In this document: positions 3,768 through 38,121 of the stretch, one piece after another
Position numbering within the stretch: position 1 is the stretch's first letter
Layout: each line of letters opens with the position of its first letter
Assembly (NCBI RefSeq): GCF_044647545.1
Contig: NZ_CP172818.1
Reading direction: 5' to 3' (one strand)
Source: Escherichia coli
GTDB taxonomy: Bacteria > Pseudomonadota > Gammaproteobacteria > Enterobacterales > Enterobacteriaceae
Length of the DNA stretch: 64,000 nucleotides
Translations under genes and position numbers: made by a program
The notes under the pieces: model-generated
Told to the model about the DNA's origin: nothing
Databases searched by the model: none
The model's input: the letters and a program-made list of their open reading frames with translations, nothing else

Positions 3768-3889
3768 GTGCGGCCTGAAAAACAGTGCTGTGCCCTTGTA
3801 ACTCATCATAATAATTTACGGCGCAGCCAAGATTTCCCTGGTGTTGGCGCAGTATTCGCGCACCCCGGTCTAGCCGGGGTCATTTTTTA
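3768..3889 (+). ncRNA. arcZ: Hfq-dependent small RNA ArcZ (RyhA/SraH), convergent with and overlapping the arcB 3' end
   Basis: Sequence gtgcggcctgaaaaacagtgctgtgccc ... gcgcaccccggtctagccggggtcatttttt matches ArcZ as I recall it, including the 3' seed region and intrinsic terminator hairpin plus T6; location between elbB and arcB as in K-12. Confidence 0.8.
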
Positions 3890-17166: not shown

Positions 17167-18657
17167 TTAACTTTTGGTTTTGACTAAATCGTTTTTGGCG
17201 CTGCCAAACGGCACGGCACCGCTAAATGGTTTGCCGTCGATAGCGTCATGAGTACGCAATGCTTCCGGGCGCAGCCAACGCTGAACGCGAGAAGGCATAT
17301 CCAGACCAATCAGCAGGATCACCACAAACGTCAAACTGAACGAGAGCGATGCCAGCGCAGTACCCAGATCCAGACGTTGAGCGATCAACGCGCCGATGAT
17401 TGGGGCCAGTGCGCCGCCCAATGCGCCAACGTTGTAGGTAAAGCCCAGGCCCGCTGCACGCTGGTCGGTATCGAAATAACCGCCAATCAGTTTCGGTAAG
17501 ATCCCGGCGATCCCTTGTCCAAGCATTTGCTGGAAGAACAGTAACAGACCGAGCACCCAGACGTTTGCGCCGCCAATCGCAAATACCGGAATAATCAGCA
17601 GCTGCGAGGCCAGCAGACTACAAACGTACGCTTTGCGGGTTCCCAGCCAGTCACCGAGGAAGCCACCGACGCAGCACCCCACCGCCGCGCCAAAGCCACT
17701 AAAGAACAGCACATTGGCGACAGTATGCGGGTCATAAGCCAGATCGGTTTTCAGATATGTTGGCAGCAGCGCCTGAATCGGCCATGAGTAGAGGAAAGCA
17801 AACAACACGACCACCATCAGCATTACGCCCGTTGGCCAGCGTTTGCCCGTACTCTGCACCATAAAGCTGATAAAGATTGCGGCGCATAACAGCCCAAGAA
17901 CAGCGACGATCGCGGCATTTTGCAGGTTACCGGCGAAGCAGAACCACAGCGCAGTAGCCGCCGCCAGTGTCATTACGATATTGGCAATGCGATGTTCACC
18001 ACGGTAGAGAATATCCACCATTGTGCGTACCGGTGCTTTACCCCCGTGTTTCTCTTTCCAGTCTTCCGCTTCCGGGATGTTTTTACGCAGCCAGAGAGCA
18101 AAGATGATTGGCAAAATGCCGATAAAGAACAGCGCACGCCAGCCCCAGACCGGAACCACCAGACTATAGACCTGAGCGGCAACGACGGCCCCCACTGAGA
18201 AGCCTGAAATCAGAAAACCACTGGCTTTGTTACGCAGATGCTTTGGCCAGCTTTCAATGACATAGGTGGCGCTGGAACCGTATTCACCCGCCATCCCCAT
18301 GCCGATGACCAGACGAGCGATAAACATGGTGATGTAGCCTGGCGCAAAGCCGCAGGCCAGCGTCCCGGCCGAGAAGAGAACGATGCTGGTGACCATTGCC
18401 AGACGACGCCCGTAGCGGTCACCCATAGCGCCGAGCATCAGGCCGCCGAACCAGCGAGAGATAAAGGCTGCGGAGATCAGACTTGCCGCCTGCACCGTCG
18501 TGAGCCCGAATTCACCCTGTACTTCGGTGAGTACTAGGGCGATTAAAACGAAATCAAAACCGTCAAGCAGATATCCCAACCAGGCAGCGGAAAATGCCCG
18601 CCATTGTGCGCGGTTAAGATGGCGATACCACGGGATATTCTGGGTTGTAGTACTCAT
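17167..18657 (-). CDS. nanT: Sialic acid transporter NanT (MFS)
   Basis: ORF 17167..18687; likely start [19 protein letters not shown] (496 aa); multi-TM MFS protein. Confidence 0.93.
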
Positions 18658-18728
18658 TGTGAGTCTCCCGCGGTGGGCGATGCCCACACGCTTTGGTATG
18701 AAAATTGTAGGGTACAGATGCGTTTATT

Positions 18729-18759
18729 TCCCCTCACCCGGTAGGGGCGAGCGAGGGGA
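18729..18759. repeat. GC-rich imperfect inverted repeat in the nanT-nanA intergenic region (tcccctcacccggtaggggcgagcgagggga)
   Basis: Read directly; related to the element at 36576-36612 (shared cccctc ... aggggcgag ... gagggg); family name not assigned. Confidence 0.5.
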
Positions 18760-18765
18760 AAAAAC

Positions 18766-19659
18766 TCACCCGCGCTCTTGCATCAACTGCTGGGCCAGCG
18801 CCTTCAGTTCTGGCAGATATTTTTCATCTACCGGACCAAACGGTTTGCGGCACAGCGGCACAGAAACGACATCCATATAATGCAGGACAGTTTTCAGGCC
18901 GCGGAATACGCCCGTTTTGATCAGTAAATCAATGACTTTGTTGCACTCAGTTTGCAGTTTCTGCGCGGTCTGGATATCGCCTTCTTTCAGCGCCTTAACA
19001 ATGCCCTGATAACGCCAGCCCATGATGTTGTAGGTACTACCGATACCACCATCAGCGCCCGCCAGAAGACCAGAGGCGAAGATTTCGTCGTAACCGTTAT
19101 AGAGCACCAGATCAGGATGTTCACGACGGATCTGCTCCATCTGATAGAGATCGCCAGAAGTCTGTTTCAGCGCACCGACGCCAGGCAACGTAACAAGTGT
19201 GTTGATCTGATCCAGGGTAAGTTTTACCCCACTCAGGGCTGGAATGTTGTACACCACCATCGGCAAACCATCCGCTGAATCAATAATTGCCCGATAGTGA
19301 TCGCAGTGTTCTTCAAAGCTGAAAGGATAGTAGAACGGCGTAACGGCAGAGACGGCATCGAAGCCATAACGTTTAGCCGATGCCGCAAGTTGTTGGCTTT
19401 CAGCAGTGCTGACGCAACCTACGTGAGCGATGAGTTTAATCTTGCCTTTCGCCTCTTCGGCGACGATTTCCAGTACCTGTTCACGCTCGGAAAGGCTTTG
19501 TACAAAGGCTTCGCCGGTAGAACCACCCACGTATAAACCGTCGATGCCCTGCTGAATATTGAACTGAACCAGGCGACGCAGACTCGCTTTATCCAGTGCT
19601 TGTTGTTGATCAAAAGGAGTCAGGAGTGCGGCCATTACGCCACGTAAATTCGTTGCCAT
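18766..19659 (-). CDS. nanA: N-acetylneuraminate lyase NanA
   Basis: 297-aa [53 protein letters not shown]...; DHDPS/NAL family. Confidence 0.96.
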
Positions 19660-19694
19660 AAATACCTCTGAAGTGATGCTTGTCTGATAAACGA

Positions 19695-19717
19695 TATACC
19701 TTTATACCTGTTATACC
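19695..19717 (-). promoter_or_regulatory. NanR operator: three GGTATA repeats (read on the minus strand) in the nanA promoter
   Basis: Plus strand shows tatacc x3 (19695-19700, 19703-19708, 19712-19717); reverse complement GGTATAACAGGTATAAAGGTATA matches the known NanR operator. Confidence 0.8.
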
Positions 19718-19780
19718 AGATCAATTAAGCAACACCCCATACAGAAAGCTTATAATGCGATCTGCTTCACTAAAGTGGCA

Positions 19781-20572
19781 TTATTTCTTTTTGTTGGTGG
19801 TCTGACCGAAGGCGTGCCAGGTAGCAGAGACGCTGTTGAGATGCGATTGCAACGCGCGATCGGCTTCATCGGGATCGTGGCGGCGGATCGCGTCAACGAT
19901 CGCAATATGCTGTTGATAGCTAACGTTGTTATGCTCGTGCAGAGCCTGATCAGCCACGGTTGGACGTGCGGCGATCAGCCAGTCGAGCAGGGCAACGTGG
20001 ATCGCCATGAAGATTGGGTTACCGGGGATCTCCGCCAGCACGCGGTGGAAATCAACGTCTGAACGAATGAATGCCGCGTTGTTATCCAGCGACTGACTGT
20101 TGATTTCCAGTGCTTTTGCCAGCAAATCGATTTGCTCATCGGTGGCGTGTTCAGCCGCATAGCGCACCAGGCTGGATTCAAAGAACAGACGTAATTGTTC
20201 GAAATGGGCAATCCCGCCAGGATGAGAAAGGAAATCTTTCGCCATGCCGGAAAGCTCGCCGATGATGGTGTCCGCAGAAGGACGTGAGACGCGAGCGCGT
20301 TCGCCGTTGTTTATCTGCACCAGACCTTTGCGTTTTAACGCTGCCAGCGCTTCACGCACCGAAGGACGCCCGACATTAAAGAACGCCATCAGTTCGCGTT
20401 CAGACGGTAATTGTTCACCTTCGCCAAATTCACGACGGCGGATCATCTGTTCCAGCTCTTCTTCCACCATTTCGGAGAGTTTTTTACGCGCCAGCGGGCG
20501 GCTGCGTAAGTTGCGGCCAATTACAGGTGAAGAATCTTCGGTTTGCGAATCAAATGCGTTCATAAGGCCCAT
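19781..20572 (-). CDS. nanR: Transcriptional repressor NanR (GntR/FadR family)
   Basis: 263-aa ORF with N-terminal wHTH; divergently placed upstream of the nan operon. Confidence 0.95.
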
Positions 20573-20951
20573 TCTGTAAGGTCAGTGTGATTAACATCAT
20601 CAGTGACATCCTATCACAGGATTGAAAGTAGGGGGAAATGGCGGGGTTTTCTCTTTGTGCCTCATCATTACTATGATTAACTGAATAATTAACTATTGCG
20701 AAAAATTAATGTAACGCAGATAAAAACATCCCGATTGAATTATTCATAAGACTATTAACAAGTATTATGAATATTATGAATGTGTTCTTACAAAATAATC
20801 ATAAGCGCATATTTTTTAATGAAAAATCACCTCATCTACAATTAAAAACACGACATCCGCACCATAAATAGCCTTGCAAAAAATATAACATCATTGTTTT
20901 CAATCTGCCGTTTATGGGATTGACCGTTTTCTTTTGACACGGAGTTCAACA

Positions 20952-22319
20952 ATGTTCGGCATAATTATATCTGTCATCGTATTAATTACGATGGGCTATT
21001 TGATCCTGAAAAACTACAAACCTCAGGTGGTGCTGGCTGCCGCAGGTATCTTCCTGATGATGTGCGGTGTCTGGTTAGGGTTCGGTGGTGTGCTCGATCC
21101 CGCCAAAAGCAGCGGCTACTTGATCGTCGATATTTATAATGAAATCCTGCGCATGCTGTCCAACCGCATTGCCGGATTGGGGCTGTCGATTATGGCAGTG
21201 GGCGGTTATGCCCGCTATATGGAGCGCATAGGGGCAAGTCGCGCGATGGTGAGCTTGTTAAGCCGCCCGTTAAAACTCATTCGCTCGCCGTATATTATTC
21301 TGTCGGCAACTTACGTCATCGGCCAAATCATGGCGCAGTTTATTACCAGCGCCTCCGGTCTGGGTATGTTGCTGATGGTCACCTTATTTCCGACGCTGGT
21401 GAGTCTGGGAGTAAGTCGTCTCTCTGCGGTGGCGGTTATCGCAACCACCATGTCCATTGAGTGGGGGATTCTGGAAACGAACTCCATTTTTGCTGCCCAG
21501 GTCGCAGGAATGAAAATTGCCACTTACTTCTTCCACTACCAGCTTCCGGTCGCCTCTTGCGTCATTATCTCGGTGGCGATCTCCCACTTTTTCGTGCAAC
21601 GCGCTTTCGACAAAAAAGATAAAAATATCAATCACGAACAGGCAGAGCAAAAAGCTCTCGATAATGTCCCACCGCTCTATTACGCCATTTTACCGGTGAT
21701 GCCGTTAATCCTGATGCTCGGCTCGCTGTTCCTTGCCCACGTCGGGCTGATGCAGTCAGAACTGCATCTGGTGGTGGTGATGTTACTGAGTTTGACGGTG
21801 ACGATGTTTGTTGAGTTCTTCCGCAAGCATAACTTGCGCGAAACAATGGACGATGTGCAGGCGTTTTTTGACGGCATGGGTACGCAGTTTGCCAACGTGG
21901 TAACGCTGGTGGTCGCGGGTGAAATATTTGCGAAAGGCTTAACGACGATTGGCACTGTCGATGCGGTTATCAGGGGGGCGGAGCATTCTGGTCTGGGCGG
22001 TATTGGCGTGATGATTATTATGGCGCTGGTCATTGCCATTTGTGCCATCGTGATGGGCTCAGGCAATGCGCCGTTTATGTCATTTGCCAGTCTTATTCCG
22101 AATATCGCAGCCGGACTACATGTACCAGCGGTTGTAATGATTATGCCGATGCATTTTGCCACGACGTTAGCGCGCGCTGTTTCGCCGATTACTGCGGTGG
22201 TGGTCGTTACGTCAGGAATTGCAGGCGTTTCGCCTTTTGCGGTAGTGAAGCGGACAGCGATCCCCATGGCAGTCGGTTTCGTGGTGAATATGATTGCCAC
22301 TATCACGCTATTTTATTAA
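20952..22319 (+). CDS. dcuD: C4-dicarboxylate transporter DcuD (DcuC family)
   Basis: ORF 20934..22319; likely start [20 protein letters not shown] (455 aa); multi-TM. Confidence 0.9.
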
Positions 22320-22332
22320 GCGATTAAAAAGA

Positions 22333-22358
22333 CAAAACAGGCCGCCAGGGCCTGTTTT
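22333..22358. terminator. Intrinsic terminator hairpin between convergent dcuD and sspB
   Basis: caggcc-gccag-ggcctg followed by TTTT, with an A-run upstream (possibly bidirectional). Confidence 0.6.
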
Positions 22359-22362
22359 AGTA

Positions 22363-22860
22363 TTACTTCACAACGCGTAATGCTGGTCGACCACCACGTG
22401 GTGGCTGCGGTGGTTCATCGTCAGGATGAGTGTCATCATCGTGATCTGGCTTGTCGCCATCAATAACCGACATAACGGTTTCGTTGTCTGCCGATGCCTC
22501 TTCATCATTCATGATGCTGGCATCTTCATCGTAGGCAGCTTCAGGTTCAAACATCGTGCCTGCGCCATTTTCACGGGCGTAGATAGCCAGCACGGCAGCC
22601 AGCGGCACAGAAACCTGACGCGGAATGCCACCAAAGCGCGCGTTAAAGCGCACCTCATCATTCGCCAGTTCCAGATTGCCGACAGCTCGCGGCGCAATGT
22701 TGAGTACGATTTGCCCGTCACGCGCATATTCCATAGGAACCTGCACGCCAGGGAGCGTCACATCCACCACCAGGTGCGGCGTGAGCTGGTTATCCAGCAA
22801 CCACTCATAGAATGCACGCAGCAGATAGGGACGACGTGGTGTTAGCTGTGACAAATCCAT
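22363..22860 (-). CDS. sspB: ClpXP adaptor / stringent starvation protein B
   Basis: 165-aa ORF MDLSQLTPRRPYLLRAFYEWLLDNQLTPHLVVD... with acidic C-terminal tail ending ...GGRPALRVVK. Confidence 0.96.
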   Translation of the reverse strand: MDLSQLTPRRPYLLRAFYEWLLDNQLTPHLVVDVTLPGVQVPMEYARDGQIVLNIAPRAVGNLELANDEVRFNARFGGIPRQVSVPLAAVLAIYARENGAGTMFEPEAAYDEDASIMNDEEASADNETVMSVIDGDKPDHDDDTHPDDEPPQPPRGGRPALRVVK

Positions 22861-22865
22861 ACAGA

Positions 22866-23504
22866 TTAACTCCGGCCCAGACGCATTTCACGTTCAGCTT
22901 CAGTTAAAGAAGCAAGGAAAGAGTCACGCTCAAAGACGCGGGTCATATAGCCTTTCAGCTCTTTCGCACCCGGGCCGCTGAACTCGATACCCAGTTGCGG
23001 CAGACGCCACAGCAGCGGAGCAAGGTAGCAATCGACCAGGCTGAATTCATCGCTCAGGAAGTACGGCTTCTGGCCGAAGACCGGCGCAATCGCCAGCAGT
23101 TCTTCGCGCAGTTGCTTACGTGCGGCATCTGCTTCAGAAGCTGAACCGTTGATGATGGTGTTCATCAGCGTGTACCAGTCTTTTTCGATGCGATGCATGT
23201 ACAGACGGCTTTCACCGCGAGCTACCGGGTAAACAGGCATCAGTGGCGGATGCGGGAAACGCTCATCCAGATATTCCATAATGATGCGAGATTCCCACAG
23301 GGTCAGCTCACGATCCACCAGGGTCGGAACGCTCTGATTCGGGTTGAGGTCAATCAGATCCTGAGGCGGATTGTCCTTTTCCACGTGTTCGATCTCGAAA
23401 CTTACACCTTTCTCAGCCAGCACAATGCGGACCTGATGGCTATAGATGTCAGTAGGACCGGAAAACAGCGTCATTACCGAACGTTTGTTGGCAGCGACAG
23501 CCAT
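22866..23504 (-). CDS. sspA: Stringent starvation protein A (GST-like, RNAP-associated)
   Basis: 212-aa ORF MAVAANKRSVMTLFSGPTDIYSHQVRIVLAEKGV... Confidence 0.96.
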   Translation of the reverse strand: MAVAANKRSVMTLFSGPTDIYSHQVRIVLAEKGVSFEIEHVEKDNPPQDLIDLNPNQSVPTLVDRELTLWESRIIMEYLDERFPHPPLMPVYPVARGESRLYMHRIEKDWYTLMNTIINGSASEADAARKQLREELLAIAPVFGQKPYFLSDEFSLVDCYLAPLLWRLPQLGIEFSGPGAKELKGYMTRVFERDSFLASLTEAEREMRLGRS

Positions 23505-23838
23505 GAAAACCTCCAGGTATAGTCAGAATTTTTACTGCTACCAGCCACCAGGTGGCCAGTCAGAAGTTGTGTTACCCAGTAAGGAACGACTCTCTTTGTT
23601 CGAAAATCAAACAAAAAATGAGCAATACCCGACATTTGGGCAGAAAATTGGATGATAGTTTACCAGATTTTGCGACCTTTGTGGTGAGTCGATGCCGGAA
23701 ATGGGGAAAAAGAGATGCGCTTTAGTCTGAAATAGTTGACTTAGTCCCTTATTGGCGATGTGGTTTTTGTTTTGCCTGTTGTCAGACGGCAGCAAAAAGC
23801 AACTTTCCATTTTTTACGCTGATTCAGAATTTAGCCAT

Positions 23839-23866
23839 AAAAAAACCCGCCGAAGCGGGTTTTTTC
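23839..23866 (-). terminator. Intrinsic terminator after rpsI
   Basis: cccgc-cgaa-gcggg hairpin flanked by A7 and T6 runs. Confidence 0.7.
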
Positions 23867-23897
23867 GCAAATTGTTTTCTGCCGGAGCAGAAGCCAA

Positions 23898-24293
<396 letters not shown>

Positions 24294-24305
24294 CTATAAT
24301 CCCGA

Positions 24306-24821
<516 letters not shown>

Positions 24822-24952
24822 CTACCCCTTCGAATAGCCTATGCCAGCACACAAAAAGTTTTGGGAAAAAAACTTTCTTGTAACGTGGGGTCGCAGGATT
24901 ATAGAGAAGTCGGGGTCAAAGATCGACCCCTTTTTGTGATTTGTGGCAGGTT

Positions 24953-26080
24953 TTAACCCGCTAAATGCTCGCGCTTCAGATACTCTTCGCTTTGCATCTC
25001 TTGCAGACGTGACAGGCAACGCTGGAACTCAAATTTCAGCCGCTCGCCCTGATAAATGTCATATAGCGGCACTTCTGCACTCACCACTAATTTGACATGG
25101 CGCTCGTAAAACTCATCCACCAGCGCAATAAAGCGCCGCGCTTCGCTCTCCATCAACCGCGTCATAACTGGTACATCAAACAACATGACCGTGTGAAAGA
25201 GGCGTGAGAGCGCAATATAGTCATGCTGACTGCGGGCGTCGACGCACAGCGTAGTAAAAGAGACCGCCAGCGTCTGGTTCTCGACGCCCATTGTCGCCAA
25301 TGGCCGATGGTTGATTTCTAATGTCGGTGAATTTTCTCGTTTCGCCCCCGCCAGCGCCAACCATAGTTTATCCATTTGCGCCCGGGTTTCATCGTTGAGG
25401 GGCGAAAGCCACAGATGCGCCTGAGTGAGTGTACGCAGTCGATAATCAACACCAGCGTCCACGTTCATTACATCACAATGCTGTTTAATGGCATCGATTG
25501 CAGGCAAAAAACGCGCACGTTGTAGGCCATTTCGATAAAGTTCGTCCGGCGGAATATTTGACGTCGCTACCAGCGTTATTCCGCGAGCGAACAGGGCTTT
25601 CATCAGGCCGCCAAGTAGCATGGCGTCGGTAATATCAGAAACAAAAAATTCGTCAAAACAGAGCACGTCAGTTTCTGCTTTAAAGCGATCGGCAATAATT
25701 TCCAGCGGATCGGTCTGCCCCTGCAAAGCAGTTAGCTCTTCATGTACCCGCAGCATAAACCGGTGAAAGTGCAGACGCTGTTTCCGCTCTCCCGGCAGGC
25801 TTTGATAGAAAAGGTCCATCAGCCAGGTTTTCCCGCGTCCTACCCCGCCCCACATATATAAGCCACGCACTGGCGTATGCTTTGTGTCTTCGCGTTTACC
25901 CCACAGCTTACCGACCCGCGCCATTAGCCCACTCGTCCTGGGGGCTGGTGGCGTGCTATTGATGAGTTCCTGATAAATAATTTCCAGGCGGCTGACGGCC
26001 TCTTTTTGAACGTCGTCGGGTTGATGGCTGCCTTCATTGAGCGCCTTCAGGTATTGCGATGTTGGGGTAATGCTTTGCAT
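24953..26080 (-). CDS. zapE: Cell division ATPase ZapE (YhcM, AFG1-like)
   Basis: 375-aa ORF with Walker A GGVGRGKT. Confidence 0.93.
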   Translation of the reverse strand: MQSITPTSQYLKALNEGSHQPDDVQKEAVSRLEIIYQELINSTPPAPRTSGLMARVGKLWGKREDTKHTPVRGLYMWGGVGRGKTWLMDLFYQSLPGERKQRLHFHRFMLRVHEELTALQGQTDPLEIIADRFKAETDVLCFDEFFVSDITDAMLLGGLMKALFARGITLVATSNIPPDELYRNGLQRARFLPAIDAIKQHCDVMNVDAGVDYRLRTLTQAHLWLSPLNDETRAQMDKLWLALAGAKRENSPTLEINHRPLATMGVENQTLAVSFTTLCVDARSQHDYIALSRLFHTVMLFDVPVMTRLMESEARRFIALVDEFYERHVKLVVSAEVPLYDIYQGERLKFEFQRCLSRLQEMQSEEYLKREHLAG

Positions 26081-26273
26081 GATCTTATTGTTATTCCTTG
26101 AATAATCGGTGCGCCGTTGTTCACGGTTGACGAAAAAAAGGCCGTTCTACACTACGCGATATGCAGTCGGGATTCCACTTCTGTGGAATTAACGGTTATA
26201 GTGGCATAATCAGCCGCAGGCATGGAGCCTGAAGCCAACACCCTACGGAAACAAAAGACAACGGGAGATGTTC

Positions 26274-26672
26274 ATGACCTGGGAATATGCGCTAATTGGG
26301 TTAGTCGTCGGCATCATTATTGGTGCTGTGGCCATGCGTTTTGGTAATCGTAAACTACGCCAGCAACAGGCGTTGCAGTACGAACTGGAAAAGAATAAAG
26401 CTGAACTGGACGAGTATCGCGAAGAGCTGGTTAGCCACTTTGCCCGCAGCGCGGAATTACTGGATACCATGGCGCACGACTATCGCCAGCTGTATCAACA
26501 CATGGCGAAAAGCTCCAGCAGCCTGCTGCCGGAACTGTCTGCTGAAGCAAACCCGTTCCGTAATCGTCTGGCAGAGTCTGAAGCCAGCAACGATCAGGCA
26601 CCGGTGCAAATGCCTCGCGACTATTCTGAAGGCGCATCCGGCCTGCTGCGTACTGGCGCGAAGCGCGACTAA
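26274..26672 (+). CDS. yhcB: Inner-membrane protein YhcB (ZapG), DUF1043
   Basis: ORF 26268..26672; likely start MTWEYALIGLVVGIIIGAVAMRFG (132 aa); single N-terminal TM plus coiled coil. Confidence 0.9.
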   Translation: MTWEYALIGLVVGIIIGAVAMRFGNRKLRQQQALQYELEKNKAELDEYREELVSHFARSAELLDTMAHDYRQLYQHMAKSSSSLLPELSAEANPFRNRLAESEASNDQAPVQMPRDYSEGASGLLRTGAKRD

Positions 26673-26825
26673 TTTATTTTTCGGGCGCAGCCATTGCGCC
26701 CTCCTCTTCTCTCCCTCCCCGACTATCATTTAATCTGGTGTCTCATTGTTAGCCGTCTGAAAATTCAATAACATCAAACTGTTTTGAATCTCTTTTCTTA
26801 TCATTCAGGTACGAGAGCAGGAATA

Positions 26826-28193
26826 ATGAAAAAACAAACCCAGCTGTTGAGTGCATTAGCGTTAAGTGTCGGGTTAACTCTCTCGGCGTCATTTCAGGCC
26901 GTTGCGTCGATTCCAGGCCAAGTTGCCGATCAGGCCCCTCTCCCCAGTCTGGCCCCAATGCTGGAAAAAGTGCTTCCGGCAGTGGTGAGCGTACGGGTGG
27001 AAGGAACGGCCAGTCAGGGACAGAAAATCCCGGAAGAATTCAAAAAGTTTTTTGGTGATGATTTACCGGATCAACCTGCACAACCCTTCGAAGGTTTAGG
27101 CTCCGGTGTCATCATCAACGCCAGTAAAGGCTATGTGCTGACCAACAACCATGTGATTAATCAGGCACAGAAAATCAGTATTCAGCTCAATGATGGGCGC
27201 GAGTTTGATGCAAAACTGATTGGTAGCGATGACCAGAGCGATATCGCCCTGTTACAAATTCAAAACCCGAGCAAATTAACGCAAATCGCTATTGCCGACT
27301 CCGATAAATTGCGCGTCGGTGATTTTGCCGTGGCGGTCGGTAACCCATTTGGCCTTGGGCAAACCGCCACCTCTGGCATTGTTTCCGCATTAGGCCGCAG
27401 CGGGTTGAATCTTGAAGGTCTGGAAAACTTTATCCAGACAGATGCTTCCATTAACCGCGGTAACTCCGGCGGTGCACTGTTAAACCTTAACGGCGAGTTA
27501 ATTGGCATCAACACTGCAATCCTTGCGCCTGGCGGCGGGAGCGTCGGGATTGGATTTGCCATCCCCAGTAATATGGCGCGAACACTGGCGCAGCAGCTTA
27601 TCGACTTTGGTGAAATCAAACGCGGTTTGTTAGGCATCAAAGGCACCGAGATGAGTGCCGATATCGCCAAAGCCTTCAACCTTGACGTGCAGCGTGGCGC
27701 GTTTGTCAGCGAAGTGTTGCCAGGTTCTGGCTCGGCGAAAGCGGGCGTCAAAGCGGGCGATATTATTACCAGCCTCAACGGCAAACCGCTGAATAGCTTT
27801 GCTGAGTTGCGCTCTCGTATCGCGACCACCGAGCCGGGCACAAAAGTGAAACTTGGCCTGCTGCGTAACGGCAAACCACTGGAAGTAGAAGTGACGCTCG
27901 ATACCAGCACCTCTTCGTCGGCCAGCGCTGAAATGATCACGCCAGCGCTGGAAGGTGCAACGTTGAGCGATGGTCAGCTAAAAGATGGCGGCAAAGGTAT
28001 TAAGATCGATGAGGTTGTCAAAGGAAGCCCAGCTGCTCAGGCTGGCTTGCAAAAAGACGATGTGATCATTGGCGTCAACCGCGATCGGGTGAACTCGATT
28101 GCTGAAATGCGTAAAGTGCTGGCGGCAAAACCGGCCATCATCGCCCTGCAAATTGTACGCGGCAATGAAAGCATCTATCTGCTGATGCGTTAA
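26826..28193 (+). CDS. degQ: Periplasmic serine endoprotease DegQ (HtrA family, two PDZ domains)
   Basis: ORF 26784..28193; likely start MKKQTQLLSALALSVGLTLSA (455 aa); catalytic GNSGGAL motif. Confidence 0.95.
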   Translation: MKKQTQLLSALALSVGLTLSASFQAVASIPGQVADQAPLPSLAPMLEKVLPAVVSVRVEGTASQGQKIPEEFKKFFGDDLPDQPAQPFEGLGSGVIINASKGYVLTNNHVINQAQKISIQLNDGREFDAKLIGSDDQSDIALLQIQNPSKLTQIAIADSDKLRVGDFAVAVGNPFGLGQTATSGIVSALGRSGLNLEGLENFIQTDASINRGNSGGALLNLNGELIGINTAILAPGGGSVGIGFAIPSNMARTLAQQLIDFGEIKRGLLGIKGTEMSADIAKAFNLDVQRGAFVSEVLPGSGSAKAGVKAGDIITSLNGKPLNSFAELRSRIATTEPGTKVKLGLLRNGKPLEVEVTLDTSTSSSASAEMITPALEGATLSDGQLKDGGKGIKIDEVVKGSPAAQAGLQKDDVIIGVNRDRVNSIAEMRKVLAAKPAIIALQIVRGNESIYLLMR

Positions 28194-28282
28194 TGTCGTA
28201 AACCGGGCATCAGGCTGACGTGTGATGTCCGGTTAACTCGTGGTATGCTGCTGCCGTTCCCTTTTTTAATGACGCCTCCATC

Positions 28283-29350
28283 ATGTTTGTGAAGCTCTTA
28301 CGTTCCGTTGCGATTGGATTAATTGTCGGCGCTATTCTGCTGGTTGCCATGCCTTCGCTGCGCAGCCTTAACCCGCTTTCCACTCCGCAATTTGACAGTA
28401 CCGATGAGACGCCTGCCAGCTATAATCTGGCGGTTCGCCGCGCCGCGCCAGCGGTGGTTAACGTTTACAACCGTGGTTTGAACACCAACTCTCACAACCA
28501 GCTTGAGATCCGCACCCTGGGATCCGGTGTAATCATGGATCAACGCGGTTATATCATCACCAATAAACACGTCATCAACGACGCCGATCAGATCATCGTC
28601 GCCTTACAGGATGGACGTGTATTTGAAGCATTGCTGGTGGGATCTGACTCTCTAACCGATCTGGCGGTACTTAAAATTAATGCCACTGGCGGTTTACCTA
28701 CCATTCCAATTAATGCACGTCGCGTACCGCACATTGGCGACGTGGTACTGGCGATCGGTAACCCGTACAACCTCGGGCAGACCATTACCCAGGGGATTAT
28801 TAGTGCCACGGGTCGAATCGGTCTGAACCCGACCGGGCGGCAAAACTTCCTGCAAACTGATGCTTCCATTAACCACGGTAACTCTGGCGGCGCGCTGGTG
28901 AACTCGCTGGGCGAACTGATGGGCATTAACACGCTGTCGTTTGATAAGAGTAACGATGGCGAAACGCCGGAAGGTATCGGCTTTGCGATTCCTTTCCAGT
29001 TAGCAACCAAAATTATGGATAAACTGATCCGCGATGGTCGCGTGATCCGCGGCTACATTGGTATCGGCGGACGTGAGATCGCACCACTGCACGCGCAGGG
29101 CGGTGGTATAGATCAACTGCAAGGGATCGTGGTTAATGAAGTGTCACCTGACGGCCCGGCGGCGAATGCGGGTATTCAGGTCAATGATTTGATTATTTCG
29201 GTGGATAACAAACCGGCCATCTCTGCTCTGGAGACGATGGATCAGGTGGCGGAAATTCGCCCTGGCTCGGTGATCCCGGTTGTAGTGATGCGTGATGATA
29301 AGCAGTTAACGCTGCAGGTCACCATTCAGGAATATCCGGCAACCAATTAA
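28283..29350 (+). CDS. degS: Periplasmic serine endoprotease DegS (sigma-E stress sensor)
   Basis: 355-aa ORF with N-terminal anchor, GNSGGAL motif and single PDZ. Confidence 0.95.
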   Translation: MFVKLLRSVAIGLIVGAILLVAMPSLRSLNPLSTPQFDSTDETPASYNLAVRRAAPAVVNVYNRGLNTNSHNQLEIRTLGSGVIMDQRGYIITNKHVINDADQIIVALQDGRVFEALLVGSDSLTDLAVLKINATGGLPTIPINARRVPHIGDVVLAIGNPYNLGQTITQGIISATGRIGLNPTGRQNFLQTDASINHGNSGGALVNSLGELMGINTLSFDKSNDGETPEGIGFAIPFQLATKIMDKLIRDGRVIRGYIGIGGREIAPLHAQGGGIDQLQGIVVNEVSPDGPAANAGIQVNDLIISVDNKPAISALETMDQVAEIRPGSVIPVVVMRDDKQLTLQVTIQEYPATN

Positions 29351-29364
29351 GTCGTGCGCTCAAA

Positions 29365-29397
29365 ACAAAAAACCGGAGTCTGTGCTCCGGTTTTTTA
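29365..29397. terminator. Intrinsic terminator hairpin between convergent degS and mdh
   Basis: ccggag-tctgtg-ctccgg hairpin flanked by A- and T-runs (possibly bidirectional). Confidence 0.7.
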
Positions 29398-29412
29398 TTA
29401 TCCGCTAATCAA

Positions 29413-30426
<1,014 letters not shown>

Positions 30427-30723
30427 TTACAATGACCACATCTCAAGAATGTGTAGTCACGCAAGTTTAGCGTTTATGCATTTAATTGCCGTAATCAGGA
30501 ACCTAACTTACGTAATTAACAGTCGCTTATGCATTAGCGCAACATTCCAACAGGTGGTGACAATATACCCTACCGTTCAGCCAAAACAACATCAATTTGA
30601 TAACAATTAATTTACTTTTAAGCAGAATTTGCATGCCGTGACGCAGGCATGTTTCTCAATAACGAAATTTGATAAAATCCCGCTCTTTCATAACATTATT
30701 TCAGCCTTCTTCAGGGCTGACTG

Positions 30724-30762
30724 TTTGCATAAAAATTCATCTGTATGCACAATAATGTTGTA
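30724..30762 (+). promoter_or_regulatory. Putative tandem ARG boxes (ArgR autoregulatory operator) in the argR promoter
   Basis: tttgcataaaaattcatc / tgtatgcacaataatgtt, ~25-60 bp upstream of the argR start; resembles the ARG box half-site pattern TGAAT-N4-ATTCA (imperfect). Confidence 0.5.
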
Positions 30763-30782
30763 TCAACCACCATATCGGGTGA

Positions 30783-31256
<474 letters not shown>

Positions 31257-31620
31257 TCTCTGCCCCGTCGCTTCTGGCGGCGGGGAAAATGTTGCTTATC
31301 CCTCTCAACCCCCTGCTTTCCCCTGCGATTGATTTAACGAATAGTGCGTTTTACTGCGACATGTCATTCACACAATGAATACATACGGTAAAAAAAGCAC
31401 ATTATGCAAAATTCATTATCTAATTGAAAATACTAGAATTAAAAATAAATAACCGTGTTTTTAATTCTTTTTTGTTATTAAAATTCACATTTTTAACACT
31501 TAGTATCAACTGAAACAGTTAGCGTGGTATTAATTAGTTCAATAATTAGTGTATACTTGATTTTGTGATATGGGTCACGAAACAAAGGCCCAGCTAAAAG
31601 ATTATGTCGAGGTAAAAATC

Positions 31621-31884
31621 ATGAAAATCAAAACCACTGTTGCTGCATTAAGCGTACTTTCTGTTCTCTCTTTCGGTGCATTCGCTGCCGACTCCATTGA
31701 TGCTGCACAAGCACAAAATCGTGAAGCAATCGGGACCGTATCCGTAAGTGGTGTGGCGTCTTCGCCAATGGATATGCGTGAAATGCTGAACAAAAAAGCA
31801 GAAGAGAAAGGCGCAACGGCCTACCAGATTACGGAAGCTCGTAGCGGTGACACCTGGCACGCTACGGCTGAACTGTACAAATAA
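31621..31884 (+). CDS. yhcN: Periplasmic stress-response protein YhcN (DUF1471, YdgH/BhsA/McbA family)
   Basis: ORF 31570..31884; likely start MKIKTTVAALSVLSVLSFGAFA (signal peptide), 87 aa. Confidence 0.88.
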   Translation: MKIKTTVAALSVLSVLSFGAFAADSIDAAQAQNREAIGTVSVSGVASSPMDMREMLNKKAEEKGATAYQITEARSGDTWHATAELYK

Positions 31885-31911
31885 ACCCTCATCGTCTTGT
31901 CCGACGATATT

Positions 31912-31937
31912 GCCCCCGGTTCGGGGGCTTTTTTTTT
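31912..31937. terminator. Intrinsic terminator between convergent yhcN and yhcO
   Basis: gcccccg-gtt-cgggggc hairpin followed by T9. Confidence 0.7.
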
Positions 31938-31940
31938 GCG

Positions 31941-32213
31941 CTAATGACGAACATTAAAACGCAAATGCCCTTCCAGCTCTTCCTCTGCCTCATCAAACAG
32001 CAATATTAACGCGCCAAAACGGCGACGTGTTTTCTCTCCCAGATGAACAAATTCAATCTCAAGTGGTAGCGGCAGGACATCGTTCATTAACACATCCCAT
32101 AGAGAGTCGAGATCGCGTACTTTATCTTTTGCCAGACCAAAGGTTTGGCTAAAGTCGCGATAAAAATCCTCCTGACTCTCAATCTCATCAAAATCAAAGG
32201 TATAAATATTCAT
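31941..32213 (-). CDS. yhcO: Barstar-like protein YhcO
   Basis: 90-aa [45 protein letters not shown]... Confidence 0.88.
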
Positions 32214-32304
32214 CTGTTGCCACCGTCACGTTTCGCGGCGAGTTCTGCCGTTCATTGCTAAGTATAGCCATGAAAAAACCGACGCTTTTGGCGTCGGTTT
32301 TGAC

Positions 32305-34272
32305 TTAACTATCGGTCAACGCATGTTGATACTTATGGAGCATACCCGTAAGCCGATGTACTGGTTCCGTCACCTGCGGTGGCGCTTGCCAGATGCGTAG
32401 CTTTTCCTGGTAGATTTCCAGTTCTTCCAGCAACTGGCCAAAGTACCGACGACGTTTATCATCGCTACGGGCAGATATCACATGGTCTGCTGTGCGGCGC
32501 ATTTGCCGGTGAAACGCCGATAAATCCTCGTTAACCGGGATCGGCGCATCACGCAGGCGCTGGTGCGCGATAATCATCGTCAGTGCCAGGCGAAATTTCG
32601 GCAAATCCCCTGGGAACTTATTCATCAGCAAAAACAGCTGCTGATAAAGTGCCGGGAGGTGATTCTCTTTACGACGTGCCACATTGGTAGTCATCGCGGA
32701 AACAGCGGCAGAAACAAACTGATTAAGCAGTACACGTCCAGTCCTGTCGCGCGATTTATCCCGCACCAGCAAAATAACGGTGAACGCGAGCACACAGCCG
32801 ACGATTTGCCCTAATGCGCTGTCGAGAAACTGACTGAAATGGAAAGTCATCGGGTTATCCAGCACGATAATATTTATGGTGCTGGCCAGCGCCCCCATCG
32901 AGCCCAGTCGCCGTTTCTGTACTTCTATACCGAGGAAAAATCCCAGCACTGCCAGGCTAATACACAGCAGCAACATGCTCTGTTGAGTATTAGGGATAAT
33001 CACCAAAAAGTAGAGCAGCCCTAACGGCAGCGCGGCCAGCGTCCCGTAGATAAAGTCGATCGCCACCATGCGTGGATTTGGCAAACGCATTGCCAGTGAC
33101 GTCACTACCGCAATCATCACCATTGCACCACTGCCGGAAGTCCAGCCCGTCCACAGCCAGAAAAGCGTCCCCAGAATGCAGGAAAGTGTGGTTCGCCAGA
33201 AGTTAACCATCGCATGATGACGTTCGGCTGACTCTACTTTGACTTCCGGTTCGCCTTGCAGGATCTCTTCTTCGGTGGCGTTGATTTTTGTGTTACTGAT
33301 AACGCCGCGCTTGAGAAGCTGATAACGCGTTGCCGCCGCGACCCAGCTATAAATGGTAACAGGCGTTTCCCGTTCCCCGGTCCAGGCGATCACTCTCCGC
33401 AGGCGTTTGAGCTGCTTGTGGACGTCCTGCGCGGTTTCTACCGGCGTGTCAAAAAATTCGCGGAAAGTATCAGTGATCAATTCCGGGCGCGTATTCTGAA
33501 TAAGATAAGTTTCGCAGGATTGTGTAATCAGCGTCAGCGATAGCGTATTGATCGCTTTTAAACGTCGATTGGCCCGCGCCCAGCGGGAAGATTCCATATT
33601 CAGGTTGCTGCGCATACCTTGTAACGCCGTAGTACGTCGCACCAGATCGCCCCAGGCTTTATCGACAACTTCACCATCGCCATGTTTGATACAGAGTTGC
33701 ATTAATTGATATTGCGCGACCAGCAAACTTTCCAGCTCTCGATCCACTTCTTGTTTGATCGATCGCGGAGAAAAGAGCAAATCCGCCATAATTGCACACA
33801 CAATACCGATAACGATCTCGCTACAACGTTCGACGGCAAACTGCGGCGTAAGCAATGGTTCCGGCTGAATAGTGATCACAATGATCAGCGCGGTATAACC
33901 TGCCAGCCCCCACGCATACGAGTTTTCTATTCGTACCAGCGAGGATATCCAGGTACAAAAACCGGCCCAGATACAGCACACCAGAATCATCAATAATGGT
34001 GCGCGGATCATCGCAATGATGATTACCAGTCCGGCAATACAGCCAATAAATGTGCCGATGATGCGCAAAAAGCCACGATAGCGAATGGCGCCAGAATACG
34101 GTTCACCTCCCGCAGCAAAGGCCGGACCGGCGGCAACAATCGCCGCTGTCAGTACCGCCCAGCGTGGCGTTTCCAGCTGGAAGTGAAAGCCAACAAACAG
34201 CGCCAGTACAATGGCGGTCGCCAGTTTTACCGCAAAGCGAATATGTTGATTAGCAATGGAGAAAATACCCAT
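32305..34272 (-). CDS. aaeB: p-Hydroxybenzoic acid efflux pump subunit AaeB
   Basis: 655-aa multi-TM ORF; downstream of aaeA in the aaeXAB operon. Confidence 0.93.
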
Positions 34273-34277
34273 CGTGA

Positions 34278-35210
34278 TTAACCAAACTCACGCAGGCGAT
34301 GGGCCATTTTACGGAAGAACGAATCCTGGCTTTCGTCGCGATCTTGTTTGCCAGTGACCACCACTGTAGCAGTGGTGCCCGCAGGCCAGATGTTCTCTTG
34401 CTGGTTGTCGAGACGAATACGTACCGGAACACGTTGCGCCAAACGTACCCATTCAAGGTTAGAGTCGATGGTCGCCATCCCTTTGTCGTCACGCGTGCTG
34501 CTGGCGTTGGTGACCCCAGCGGCAACACTATCAACAGTCCCTTTCAGCACTTTGTTACTGCCAAGCGGCGTGATCTCCGCACGATACCCAGGGCGCACCC
34601 CTTCCAGCTTGGTTTCTTCCATATAGGCCAGTACATAGAAAGAGTTCTGTTTCACCAGCGCAACCGCCGTTGATCCACGGGTAATAAACTCACCGGTATA
34701 GACGTTGAGGTTGGTCACCCAGCCATCTGCTGGCGCGCGGATGACTGTACGTTCAAGATCCAGTTTTGCCAGATCGCGGGTCGCCTGCGCTTTCGCTAAC
34801 TGATGCAGAACCGTTTGTAGTACGTTGTTGGCCTGGTCGATCTCTTCGCGAGACATCGCCTGCACACCGAGACGGTTACGACGTCCGGCCTCCTGGCGTT
34901 TCTCCTGTGCCAGTACCTGATAATAAGCAACATCGGCTTGCGCTTCCTCAAGCGCCTTTTGATAGCGCGGCTGGTCGATGATGAACAGTACCTGTCCTTT
35001 TTTCACCAGCTGGTTATCATGAACATTCACCTGGGTGATAAGTCCAGAAACGTCCGGCGCGATCGCAACGACGTCAGCGCTAAAGCGCGCGTCACGCGTC
35101 CAGGGGGATTCGGTGTAATAGACCCAGGCATTAAAAATTGCGATGAAGGCCAGAATGACTAATACGACCGTGATGGCCGTACGGGAGAATTTTCTTATTA
35201 GTGTTTTCAC
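34278..35210 (-). CDS. aaeA: p-Hydroxybenzoic acid efflux pump subunit AaeA (membrane fusion protein)
   Basis: 310-aa ORF with N-terminal TM and HlyD-like coiled coil. Confidence 0.93.
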
Positions 35211-35217
35211 TTCAACC

Positions 35218-35421
35218 TCAAACGAACAGTCGCGATATCAAATAAAACAAGCAGCAATAGAGCGCGGTGTTGAACAACGCCGGATGCCAGACAAAGTCGT
35301 AGATACCTGTTGGCACAAGTACCCGGCGCACCAGCCAGAAAATCGCCAGTGATAAAAGCAATTCGAAAAATATCGGTGGGAAGGACAGCCCAAACACCAC
35401 GATAACGGGAAACAGACTCAT
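35218..35421 (-). CDS. aaeX: Small membrane protein AaeX
   Basis: ORF 35218..35490; likely start [33 protein letters not shown] (67 aa). Confidence 0.85.
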
Positions 35422-35570
35422 GTTGACCTTGGTTGTATAGAGAGAGCAGGCGTTATTATTTTCAGCATCTGTCGCCGCAGAGAAGGGCATGGAAAGCCGG
35501 GCGAGAGCAACATTGCTGTAGATTGATATTTAATATATTAGCGTAACTGTTATGCTGTTATCTATATTAT

Positions 35571-35584
35571 GTGATCTAAATCAC
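35571..35584. promoter_or_regulatory. Putative LysR-type (T-N11-A) operator palindrome GTGATCTAAATCAC in the aaeR/aaeXAB divergent promoter region
   Basis: Perfect 14-bp palindrome read directly, located ~20 bp upstream of the aaeR start; assignment to AaeR is inference. Confidence 0.35.
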
Positions 35585-35603
35585 TTTTAAGTCAGAGTGA
35601 ATA

Positions 35604-36533
35604 ATGGAACGACTAAAACGCATGTCGGTGTTTGCCAAAGTAGTTGAATTTGGCTCTTTTACCGCCGCCGCCAGACAGCTACAGATGAGCGTTTCGTCCA
35701 TCAGTCAGACGGTGTCAAAACTGGAAGATGAGTTGCAGGTAAAGCTGTTAAACCGTAGCACACGCAGCATTGGCCTGACCGAAGCCGGTAGAATTTACTA
35801 CCAGGGCTGCCGTCGGATGCTCCATGAAGTGCAGGATGTTCATGAGCAACTGTATGCCTTCAATAACACCCCCATCGGGACGCTGCGCATTGGCTGTTCT
35901 TCAACTATGGCACAAAATGTTCTCGCCGGGCTGACAGCAAAAATGCTGAAAGAATACCCAGGTTTGAGCGTCAATCTGGTTACCGGAATTCCTGCCCCCG
36001 ACCTGATTGCCGATGGTCTGGATGTGGTGATCCGCGTCGGCGCGTTGCAGGATTCCAGCCTGTTTTCCCGCCGTCTGGGCGCGATGCCGATGGTGGTGTG
36101 CGCCGCGAAAAGCTATCTCACACAATACGGCATACCGGAAAAACCCGCCGATTTGAGTAGTCATTCATGGCTTGAATACAGCGTGCGGCCCGACAATGAA
36201 TTTGAACTGATCGCACCGGAAGGGATCTCGACTCGCCTGATCCCACAAGGAAGATTTGTGACTAATGATCCGATGACGCTGGTGCGCTGGCTGACGGCGG
36301 GTGCCGGGATCGCCTACGTGCCGCTGATGTGGGTGATCAACGAGATCAATCGTGGGGAGCTGGAGATCCTGCTGCCGCGTTATCAGTCAGATCCACGCCC
36401 GGTTTATGCGTTATATACCGAAAAAGATAAGCTGCCGCTGAAGGTACAAGTCGTGATCAACTCGCTAACGGATTATTTTGTTGAGGTCGGTAAATTGTTT
36501 CAGGAGATGCACGGGCGCGGGAAAGAGAAGTAA
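35604..36533 (+). CDS. aaeR: LysR-family transcriptional activator AaeR
   Basis: 309-aa ORF with N-terminal HTH (…FTAAARQLQMSVSSISQTVSKLEDEL…). Confidence 0.93.
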   Translation: MERLKRMSVFAKVVEFGSFTAAARQLQMSVSSISQTVSKLEDELQVKLLNRSTRSIGLTEAGRIYYQGCRRMLHEVQDVHEQLYAFNNTPIGTLRIGCSSTMAQNVLAGLTAKMLKEYPGLSVNLVTGIPAPDLIADGLDVVIRVGALQDSSLFSRRLGAMPMVVCAAKSYLTQYGIPEKPADLSSHSWLEYSVRPDNEFELIAPEGISTRLIPQGRFVTNDPMTLVRWLTAGAGIAYVPLMWVINEINRGELEILLPRYQSDPRPVYALYTEKDKLPLKVQVVINSLTDYFVEVGKLFQEMHGRGKEK

Positions 36534-36575
36534 TTAATATTGTACTGTTACGTAGTACAAACCTGTGCCAACGGG

Positions 36576-36612
36576 TTCCCCTCCCCCTAACCCCAGAGGG
36601 GCGAGGGGACCG
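36576..36612. repeat. GC-rich imperfect inverted repeat downstream of aaeR and tldD (ttcccctccccctaaccccagaggggcgaggggacc)
   Basis: Read directly; related to the element at 18729-18759. Confidence 0.5.
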
Positions 36613-36660
36613 TTCGTACACGGAGAAGGATTAATTATCCTTCTGAAAATACTGAAATTA

Positions 36661-38121
<1,461 letters not shown>

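Follow-up and report, generated by a model that had tools for sequence, protein, structure and literature searches.

Two intergenic hairpins in Escherichia coli as probable two-block remnants of BoxC repeats

Hairpin elements in the nanA-nanT and aaeR-tldD spacers

The window analysed here, a stretch of 64 kb, was identified as Escherichia coli DNA from the ArcZ small RNA gene at positions 3768-3875 (matched over its full length with 120.8 bits) and from the nanA/nanT and aaeR/tldD flanks, which match thousands of E. coli genomes. It holds two short elements, both intergenic. Element 1 (18729-18759; plus strand tCCCCTCACCCGGTAGGGGCGAGCGAGGGGa) lies between the nanA stop codon (18766-18768) and the nanT ATG (18655-18657), and since both genes are on the minus strand it lies inside the nan operon transcript. 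Element 2 (36576-36612; plus strand ttCCCCTCCCCCTAACCCCAGAGGGGCGAGGGGACCg) is found between the convergent genes aaeR (plus strand, ending at 36533) and tldD (minus strand, ending at 36661). An earlier note on this DNA had named the same positions and the same genes, and a reading of the sequence found its positions exact and its gene context correct.

The two elements share the motif CCCCTC…AGGGGCGAG…GAGGGG, which the earlier note had pointed out and which is real: the pattern CCCCTC-N17-GAGGGG occurs once in the window against 0.00 occurrences expected from 100 shuffles, and the exact 9-mer AGGGGCGAG occurs twice in the 64 kb when both strands are counted, each time inside one of the two elements. 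The folding into hairpins that had been claimed is likewise strong. With tools that model Watson-Crick and wobble pairs only, the predicted RNA fold of element 1 reached -33.1 kcal/mol on the sense (minus) strand (z = -5.15) and -20.8 kcal/mol on the plus strand (z = -1.2), the latter being weaker because two stem positions are G.U pairs. The fold of element 2 reached -38.1 kcal/mol on the plus strand (z = -4.7) and -35.2 kcal/mol on the minus strand (z = -2.3). DNA folding parameters returned the same structures for both elements. Neither hairpin is followed by a clear T-run, also as noted before, and the terminator scan was empty at either one. The coordinates of the features discussed below are collected in Table 1.

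Table 1. Features of the two elements, in window coordinates (types A and B are BoxC forms described in the text)
Feature	Position	Strand	Sequence or remark
Element 1 stem-loop, nanA-nanT spacer	18722..18765	-	sense RNA GUUUUUUCCCCUCGCUCG-CCCCUAC-CGGGUGAGGGGAAAUAAAC; begins 1 nt past nanA stop
Element 1 3' arm	18730..18739	-	sense GGGTGAGGGG, identical to distal purine block of BoxC/TMECO consensus
Type-B linker CCG, before element 1 3' arm	18740-18742	sense strand (-)	from flank comparison
Element 1 5' arm	18748..18758	-	sense CCCCTCGCTCG, BoxC pyrimidine block; two positions pair only as G.U
Element 2, BoxC/TMECO no. 14 locus, two-block allele	36577..36609	-	CCCCTCGCCCC-TCT-GGGG^TTA-GGGGGAGGGG; caret marks 6-bp middle-block deletion relative to K-12
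Element 2 deletion junction TAA/CCCC	36589..36592	+	additional CCCTCA or CCCTCT present in K-12, strain 118 and strain 155
Left flanking inverted repeat of element 2	36562..36574	+	has AACGG, reverse complement of the 3' flank GAACCCGTT after the BoxC core (family orientation)
Right flanking inverted repeat of element 2	36610..36623	+	CCGTTCGTACACGG; reverse complement gives the conserved type-A 5' flank ..aACGGTC

The best-matching genome, FDAARGOS_497 (NZ_CP033850.1), is 100% identical at both spacers when window positions 18600-36660 are compared. The distance between the two spacers is 1,438 bp larger in that genome than in the window, so an insertion or deletion must lie between nanA and aaeR in one of the two sequences.

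The BoxC family and its copy between aaeR and tldD

The earlier note had taken the elements for members of a small dispersed repeat family and had named BoxC, RSA, ERIC/IRU and REP as the catalogued families for comparison; the match was BoxC. This family has been known since the 1990s and was renamed PIT (potential intrastrand triplex) and then TMECO, as set out by Holder et al. (2015, PMC4666352), who refer to the BoxC descriptions of that decade and to PIT work from the Maher group. The consensus reads CCCTCNCCC-N3-6-GGGNGAGGG-N3-GGGNGAGGG, a complete copy consisting of the pyrimidine block CCCTCNCCC and, after it, the purine block GGGNGAGGG twice in direct repeat, and a single strand can form a hairpin plus a third strand, that is, an intrastrand triplex, which has been seen in vitro only (PMC4666352). 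The same study tabulated 23 copies in MG1655, of which no. 14 lies at 3,390,494-3,390,529, and reported small deletions, mutated copies and a hairpin-leaving "palindrome effect" at BoxC loci; promoter activity, terminator activity and any effect on RNA polymerase were all absent when complete PIT elements were tested (PMC4666352). Older sources give 32-33 copies of about 56 bp, with 33 features in the first GenBank record of MG1655 and 32 copies in an earlier survey; size and copy number are tabulated by Petrillo et al. 2008 (PMC2267715). Copies of the common "mm" type have a G.T wobble where the pyrimidine block is paired with the distal purine block; pairing with the middle block would bring in a G.A mismatch. 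From a comparison of flanks we distinguish type-A copies, with ..cGGTC and GAA around the core and a TTA linker, from type-B copies, with a T-run before the core, an A-run after it and a CCG linker. The RefSeq annotation of MG1655 shows no repeat at either of our two sites; because this includes the published TMECO no. 14, its silence is uninformative.

In MG1655, TMECO no. 14 is positioned in the aaeR-tldD spacer, and its flanks match those of element 2, making the two orthologous; by that orthology, element 2 is a member of BoxC. The K-12 copy, CCCCTCACCC-TAA-CCCTCACCCC-AAA-GGGGCGAGGGG, satisfies the full three-block pattern, and the window allele differs from it only in lacking 6 bp (CCCTCA) within the middle block, as seen in alignment A1 and as a 6-nt gap in the nhmmer alignment. 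Element 2 is accordingly the only window match to the two-block BoxC pattern (one occurrence against 0.00 expected), and the three-block pattern has no match in the window at all. An nhmmer profile built from the 23 published copies ranked element 2 first in the 64-kb window with a marginal E = 0.019. Its flanks and linker (..cGGTC, GAA, TTA) are those of type A when compared with K-12 and other copies; the flank ..cGGTC is present in eight of the nine K-12 BoxC copies compared, no. 14 included, the exception being the type-B copy no. 3. In the predicted fold, the left flanking inverted repeat (Table 1) lengthens the stem.

The spacer is polymorphic among E. coli genomes. A three-block allele is found in K-12 and in strains 118 and 155, a two-block allele in the window and in E118, NIPH17_0036 and DL21, and a one-block allele in strain 4/4, where a second 6-bp unit is missing upstream of the junction. 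Among 40 megablast hits taken at even intervals from the 4,477, about 24 alleles had two blocks, 10 had three, five had one, and one was interrupted by an IS. This agrees roughly with a short-query BLAST, in which about 55% of genomes lay no more than 5% away from the window allele and about 39% no more than 5% away from that of K-12. The dispersal of the family was estimated from BLAST place counts: per E. coli genome, the 49-nt core of element 2 turned up at a median of 12 places, with a maximum of 22, and for the 57-nt no. 14 allele of K-12 the median was 16.

In E. coli isolate 538, the gene of an IS4-like ISEc13 transposase replaces the aaeR side of the spacer directly beside BoxC, which fits the reported instability around these repeats. 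Element 2 is also flanked by two A+T-rich palindromes, TTGTACTGTTACGTAGTACAA right after the aaeR stop (36540-36560) and AGAAGGATTAATTATCCTTCT right after the tldD stop (36624-36644), so that the aaeR-tldD spacer amounts to three stacked palindromes. Neither of the A+T-rich palindromes has a T-run.

Origin of the nanA-nanT hairpin

In family orientation, element 1 reads ttttttC-CCCTCGCTCGCCCC-TA-CCG-GGTGAGGGG-aaataa. Its distal block is the consensus GGGTGAGGGG, its linker is the CCG of type B, and its flanks, TTTTTC…AAATAAA, are also of type B; these T-run and A-run flanks resemble those of K-12 copy no. 3 and of the copies in Pseudocitrobacter and Enterobacter sp. kpr-6. In E. albertii the 5' arm is the perfect complement CCCTCACCCG. 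From its sequence, element 1 is probably a type-B derivative of BoxC without the middle purine block. It could have arisen in any of three ways: by an internal deletion in a single type-B copy, by the collapse of an inverted pair, or by degeneration of a reverse copy. In contrast to the catalogued copies, element 1 is absent from the published table of 23 (PMC4666352, where nanT is unmentioned), is fixed rather than polymorphic, and lies inside an operon.

A close counterpart was met in the lldD-trmL spacer. In K-12 this spacer holds TMECO no. 18, the complete type-B copy CCCTCGCCCC-TCC-GGGGAGAGGG-CCG-GGGTGAGGGG (3,781,121-3,781,156). In one other genome (locus positions 401-435), 12 bp have been lost between CCGGGG direct repeats, leaving TTTTTTCTCCCTCGCCCCTCCGGGGTGAGGGGAAAA, a near-copy of element 1 that aligns with it over the whole hairpin (alignment A5). 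That genome was reached through the 53-nt element 1 query, which found 1,496 extra BLAST places among 5,412 genomes, the single one read being the lldD-trmL spacer; the count of extra places suggests, with that one genome read, that the deleted allele is carried by about 27% of E. coli genomes. Apart from this convergently decayed copy, element 1 is without a close paralogue.

To place element 1 among its relatives, the nanA loci of 80 species were taken and each nanA-nanT spacer was extracted. The element is present in all six Escherichia species surveyed, single-copy and fixed in the genus, and its core is invariant in the sampled E. coli genomes. At the same position, two complete BoxC copies stand as an inverted pair in Pseudocitrobacter faecalis and Enterobacter sp. 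kpr-6. P. vendiensis carries one reverse type-B copy and an array in which a 73-bp unit is repeated 3.9 times in tandem, with a complete type-A BoxC in each unit. Two Kluyvera species have the third block truncated, and a third Kluyvera has a degenerate hairpin only. Pseudocitrobacter, Enterobacter sp. kpr-6 and Kluyvera have the downstream part of the spacer in common with E. coli (alignment A3). Together with the reverse copy, the P. vendiensis array (locus positions 2158-2442) expands the spacer to 403 bp. At window position 18760, just 5' of the element 1 stem (sense GAGTT[T/G]TTT), the window has T and K-12 and most sampled genomes have G, and the window's 53-nt element 1 sequence is matched at 99% or better in only 185 of 5,412 genomes.

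It seems improbable that element 1 is an independent hairpin which resembles BoxC by chance, leaving element 2 as the only BoxC member. Such a reading would account for a profile score that is not significant (E = 3.6, although second in the 64-kb window), for the median of one place per genome found with the 53-nt query, and for the failure of the published pattern, since element 1 lacks the three-block form and misses even the two-block version by one base. Because of that score, membership rests on the flanks, the lldD-trmL allele and synteny, and each of these argues against chance. The match exceeds the stem, taking in the exact distal block GGGTGAGGGG, the CCG linker and the T-run and A-run flanks; the alignment to the decayed TMECO no. 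18 has a BLAST E = 0.3 against 28 Gb, which rescales to about 5e-5 for one 5-Mb genome; and in related genera this site is taken up by complete BoxC copies, the downstream sequence being shared.

We therefore regard it as very probable that both elements are decayed BoxC copies which have lost the middle block, the outer blocks leaving a plain hairpin. In both window copies the outer two blocks would form an ordinary G+C-rich hairpin, some 11-14 bp long, and with the third block missing neither copy should be able to form the BoxC triplex. As regards the route of loss, in the lowest-energy fold of the three-block K-12 allele the outer blocks are paired and the middle block, itself one of two direct repeats, sits in a 17-nt loop. 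Short direct repeats border both the 6-bp deletion at aaeR-tldD and the 12-bp deletion at lldD-trmL. Replication slippage typically acts on direct repeats that are looped out, and the looped-out middle block and the junction sequences fit slippage as the mechanism. The nanA-nanT copy may have undergone the same kind of slippage deletion long ago, the product now being fixed in Escherichia.

The likeness of the two elements to BoxC thus extends to the blocks CCCTCNCCC and GGGTGAGGGG, to the linkers (TTA of type A in element 2, CCG of type B in element 1), to the conserved flanks, to a strictly intergenic position and, for element 2, to orthology with a catalogued copy in a family whose small internal deletions are already described. 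They differ from complete copies in lacking the middle purine block, so that a hairpin only would be expected of them. Of the repeat-family claim in the earlier note, membership stands: element 2 is the orthologue of TMECO no. 14, with a core at a median of 12 places per genome, and element 1 appears to be a type-B derivative. What needed correction is that the family was already known and that both window copies are decayed two-block forms; since neither fits the strict three-block definition, "BoxC remnants" is the most suitable name for them.

The finding is a rediscovery of the BoxC/PIT/TMECO family and as such matters little: the family, its instability and the aaeR-tldD copy are already published, and the only additions made here are the assignment of the nanA-nanT hairpin to BoxC and an explicit two-block decay route. 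Nevertheless, it provides clear examples of decay in which the middle block, placed between direct repeats and in the loop of the stablest hairpin, disappears, probably through slippage over 6 or 12 bp, to give a plain hairpin. Searches with a three-block pattern miss such remnants (the 23-copy table misses nanA-nanT), so the finding is useful for annotation. The three-, two- and one-block alleles at aaeR-tldD, set against the fixed two-block copy at nanA-nanT, also offer a natural experiment on how far the instability of BoxC depends on the third block.

Another BoxC copy close to a gene end is TMECO no. 19 (K-12 3,908,495-3,908,530), 19 bp past the pstA stop. In the gene order pstSCAB-phoU, this copy would lie between pstA and pstB and would be an intra-operon BoxC like element 1.

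Possible roles in transcripts

The promoter and terminator scans found no promoter-like motif at either element and no terminator-like one on either strand. Transcribed within the nanATEK mRNA, element 1 would form a stem of 24 pairs beginning 1 nt past the nanA stop; element 2 could be transcribed from tldD and possibly from aaeR. Both transcripts would then carry very stable stem-loops without a U-tract, and the most likely effect, if any, would be that of a passive barrier to 3'-to-5' exonucleases. This idea draws on two analogies. REP elements stabilise upstream mRNA. Like REP/BIME (PU) elements, the two hairpins are short G+C-rich extragenic palindromes without a U-tract, found after stop codons and inside operons, and the same nanA-nanT slot is occupied by REP in many other Enterobacteriaceae; they differ in belonging to another sequence family without the GCCGGATG-type core. 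BoxC copies number tens per genome against hundreds for REP, and no BoxC-binding protein is known. The second analogy is with stable stem-loops lacking a U-tract that protect RNA 3' ends in E. coli, in Rho-dependent transcripts (PMC6061677). Similar to these, the elements here are stable stem-loops directly downstream of a coding region with no U-run; they differ in that no 3' end maps to element 1 or 2 in the supplements of PMC7815308, whose conditions left the nan operon uninduced. A published nanA-nanT stem-loop was not found in our literature search.

A bicyclomycin-sensitive (Rho-dependent) region has been reported at K-12 3,390,148 on the minus strand, antisense to aaeR and corresponding to about window position 36230 (PMC7815308). 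This is about 350 nt beyond BoxC no. 14. The likely source of the signal is tldD, in which case tldD transcription would read through BoxC and end inside antisense aaeR.

A question of function rather than origin, and one compatible with descent from BoxC, is whether element 1 now serves the nan operon as a co-opted RNA element under selection, its intercistronic stem-loop either protecting the nanA portion of the nanATEK mRNA against 3' exonucleases or marking a processing site. The level of nanA would then be uncoupled from that of nanT and the downstream genes, and REP, BoxC and other palindromes would do the same job in other genera. We consider this possible but doubtful. The hairpin lies 1 nt past the nanA stop and is stabler on the transcribed strand (-33.1 against -20.8 kcal/mol), its core does not vary among the sampled E. 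coli genomes, and stem-loops of this kind do protect 3' ends in this species (PMC6061677). Across eight Escherichia sequences, pairing is kept in 97.4% of cells, and at the five stem pairs that vary each change keeps a standard pair in the sense RNA by way of G.U wobble. However, compensatory double changes are absent, all of the Escherichia stem changes being one-sided wobble. Transitions that preserve a wobble pair are also the commonest type of mutation. The wobble-only pattern is thus suggestive of selection on the sense RNA of element 1 and is equally expected from mutation alone. Moreover, E. coli and E. albertii are no more alike in the stem region than in the remainder of the spacer.

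The comparison across genera cuts both ways. The nanA-nanT spacer is at least 46 nt long in 78 of the 80 species, and in a crude motif screen 49 of the 80 spacers were REP-like, 11 were BoxC-like and 20 had neither motif. Among those 20 are the short spacers of two Trabulsiella species, which at 32-33 nt have no hairpin, so that a hairpin is not required at nanA-nanT. The sense strand is the stabler one in only 38 of the 80 spacers, which amounts to no strand bias. The nan operon was uninduced where PMC7815308 data lack a 3' end downstream of nanA, and complete PIT elements were without effect on transcription in published tests (PMC4666352). In a fuller version of the idea, the two-block hairpin derived from BoxC would have become fixed in Escherichia as a functional RNA part of the sialic-acid operon, setting the nanA:nanT ratio as a barrier to exonucleases or a mark for processing. 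Unrelated palindromic repeats (REP, BoxC and others) would be functionally interchangeable in this slot across Enterobacteriaceae, and loss of the middle block would have turned an unstable, triplex-prone repeat into a stable, usable stem-loop. To this we give somewhat less credence still, and regard it as unlikely.

That the elements might instead be terminators or attenuators, element 1 attenuating between nanA and nanT and element 2 serving aaeR and tldD in both directions, is very hard to sustain. The stable G+C-rich hairpins do stand just past stop codons, but the U-tract that follows an intrinsic terminator hairpin is absent on either strand of either element; the terminator signature is missing at both, in line with the earlier note's view that these are not ordinary terminators. 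PIT elements also lacked terminator activity in published tests (PMC4666352), and the Rho-dependent region about 350 nt past BoxC (PMC7815308), with tldD as its likely source, would mean read-through of the repeat.

Assignment to another catalogued E. coli repeat (REP/BIME, ERIC/IRU or RSA) can practically be dismissed. In its favour, the elements are intergenic, palindromic and G+C-rich, and in Salmonella, Citrobacter, Enterobacter and Lelliottia it is REP that fills this nanA-nanT slot; against it, element 2 is among the published BoxC loci and the GCCGGATG/…CATCCGGC-type REP core is absent from both. This core, an imperfect palindrome of the form GCCGGATG… / …CATCCGGC (as read from Salmonella and Citrobacter spacers), was looked for in 18657-18766 and 36534-36660 and found in neither interval; it is obvious in the Salmonella and Citrobacter spacers at nanA-nanT. 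ERIC/IRU and RSA are set apart by length, the palindromic spans here being 44 nt and 62 nt against about 127 bp for ERIC and about 150 bp (~152 nt) for RSA. At Rfam gathering thresholds ArcZ was the sole match in the window, and permissive Rfam scans over both elements gave generic hairpin noise only, far below each family cut-off.

Element 1 shares its spacer with a second, smaller hairpin, GTGGGCATCGCCCAC, which sits on the minus strand at window 18673-18687 and abuts the ribosome-binding site of nanT, immediately 5' of its Shine-Dalgarno sequence GGGAGA. A simple motif screen found it in 26 of the 80 species. The two sides of its stem change in step between genera (GTGGGC/GCCCAC, ATGGGG/CCCCAT, TGGGT/ACCCA), and Buttiauxella has an analogous hairpin, CGGGTT…AACCCG. 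The nanT-adjacent hairpin may be a conserved translational or processing element for nanT.
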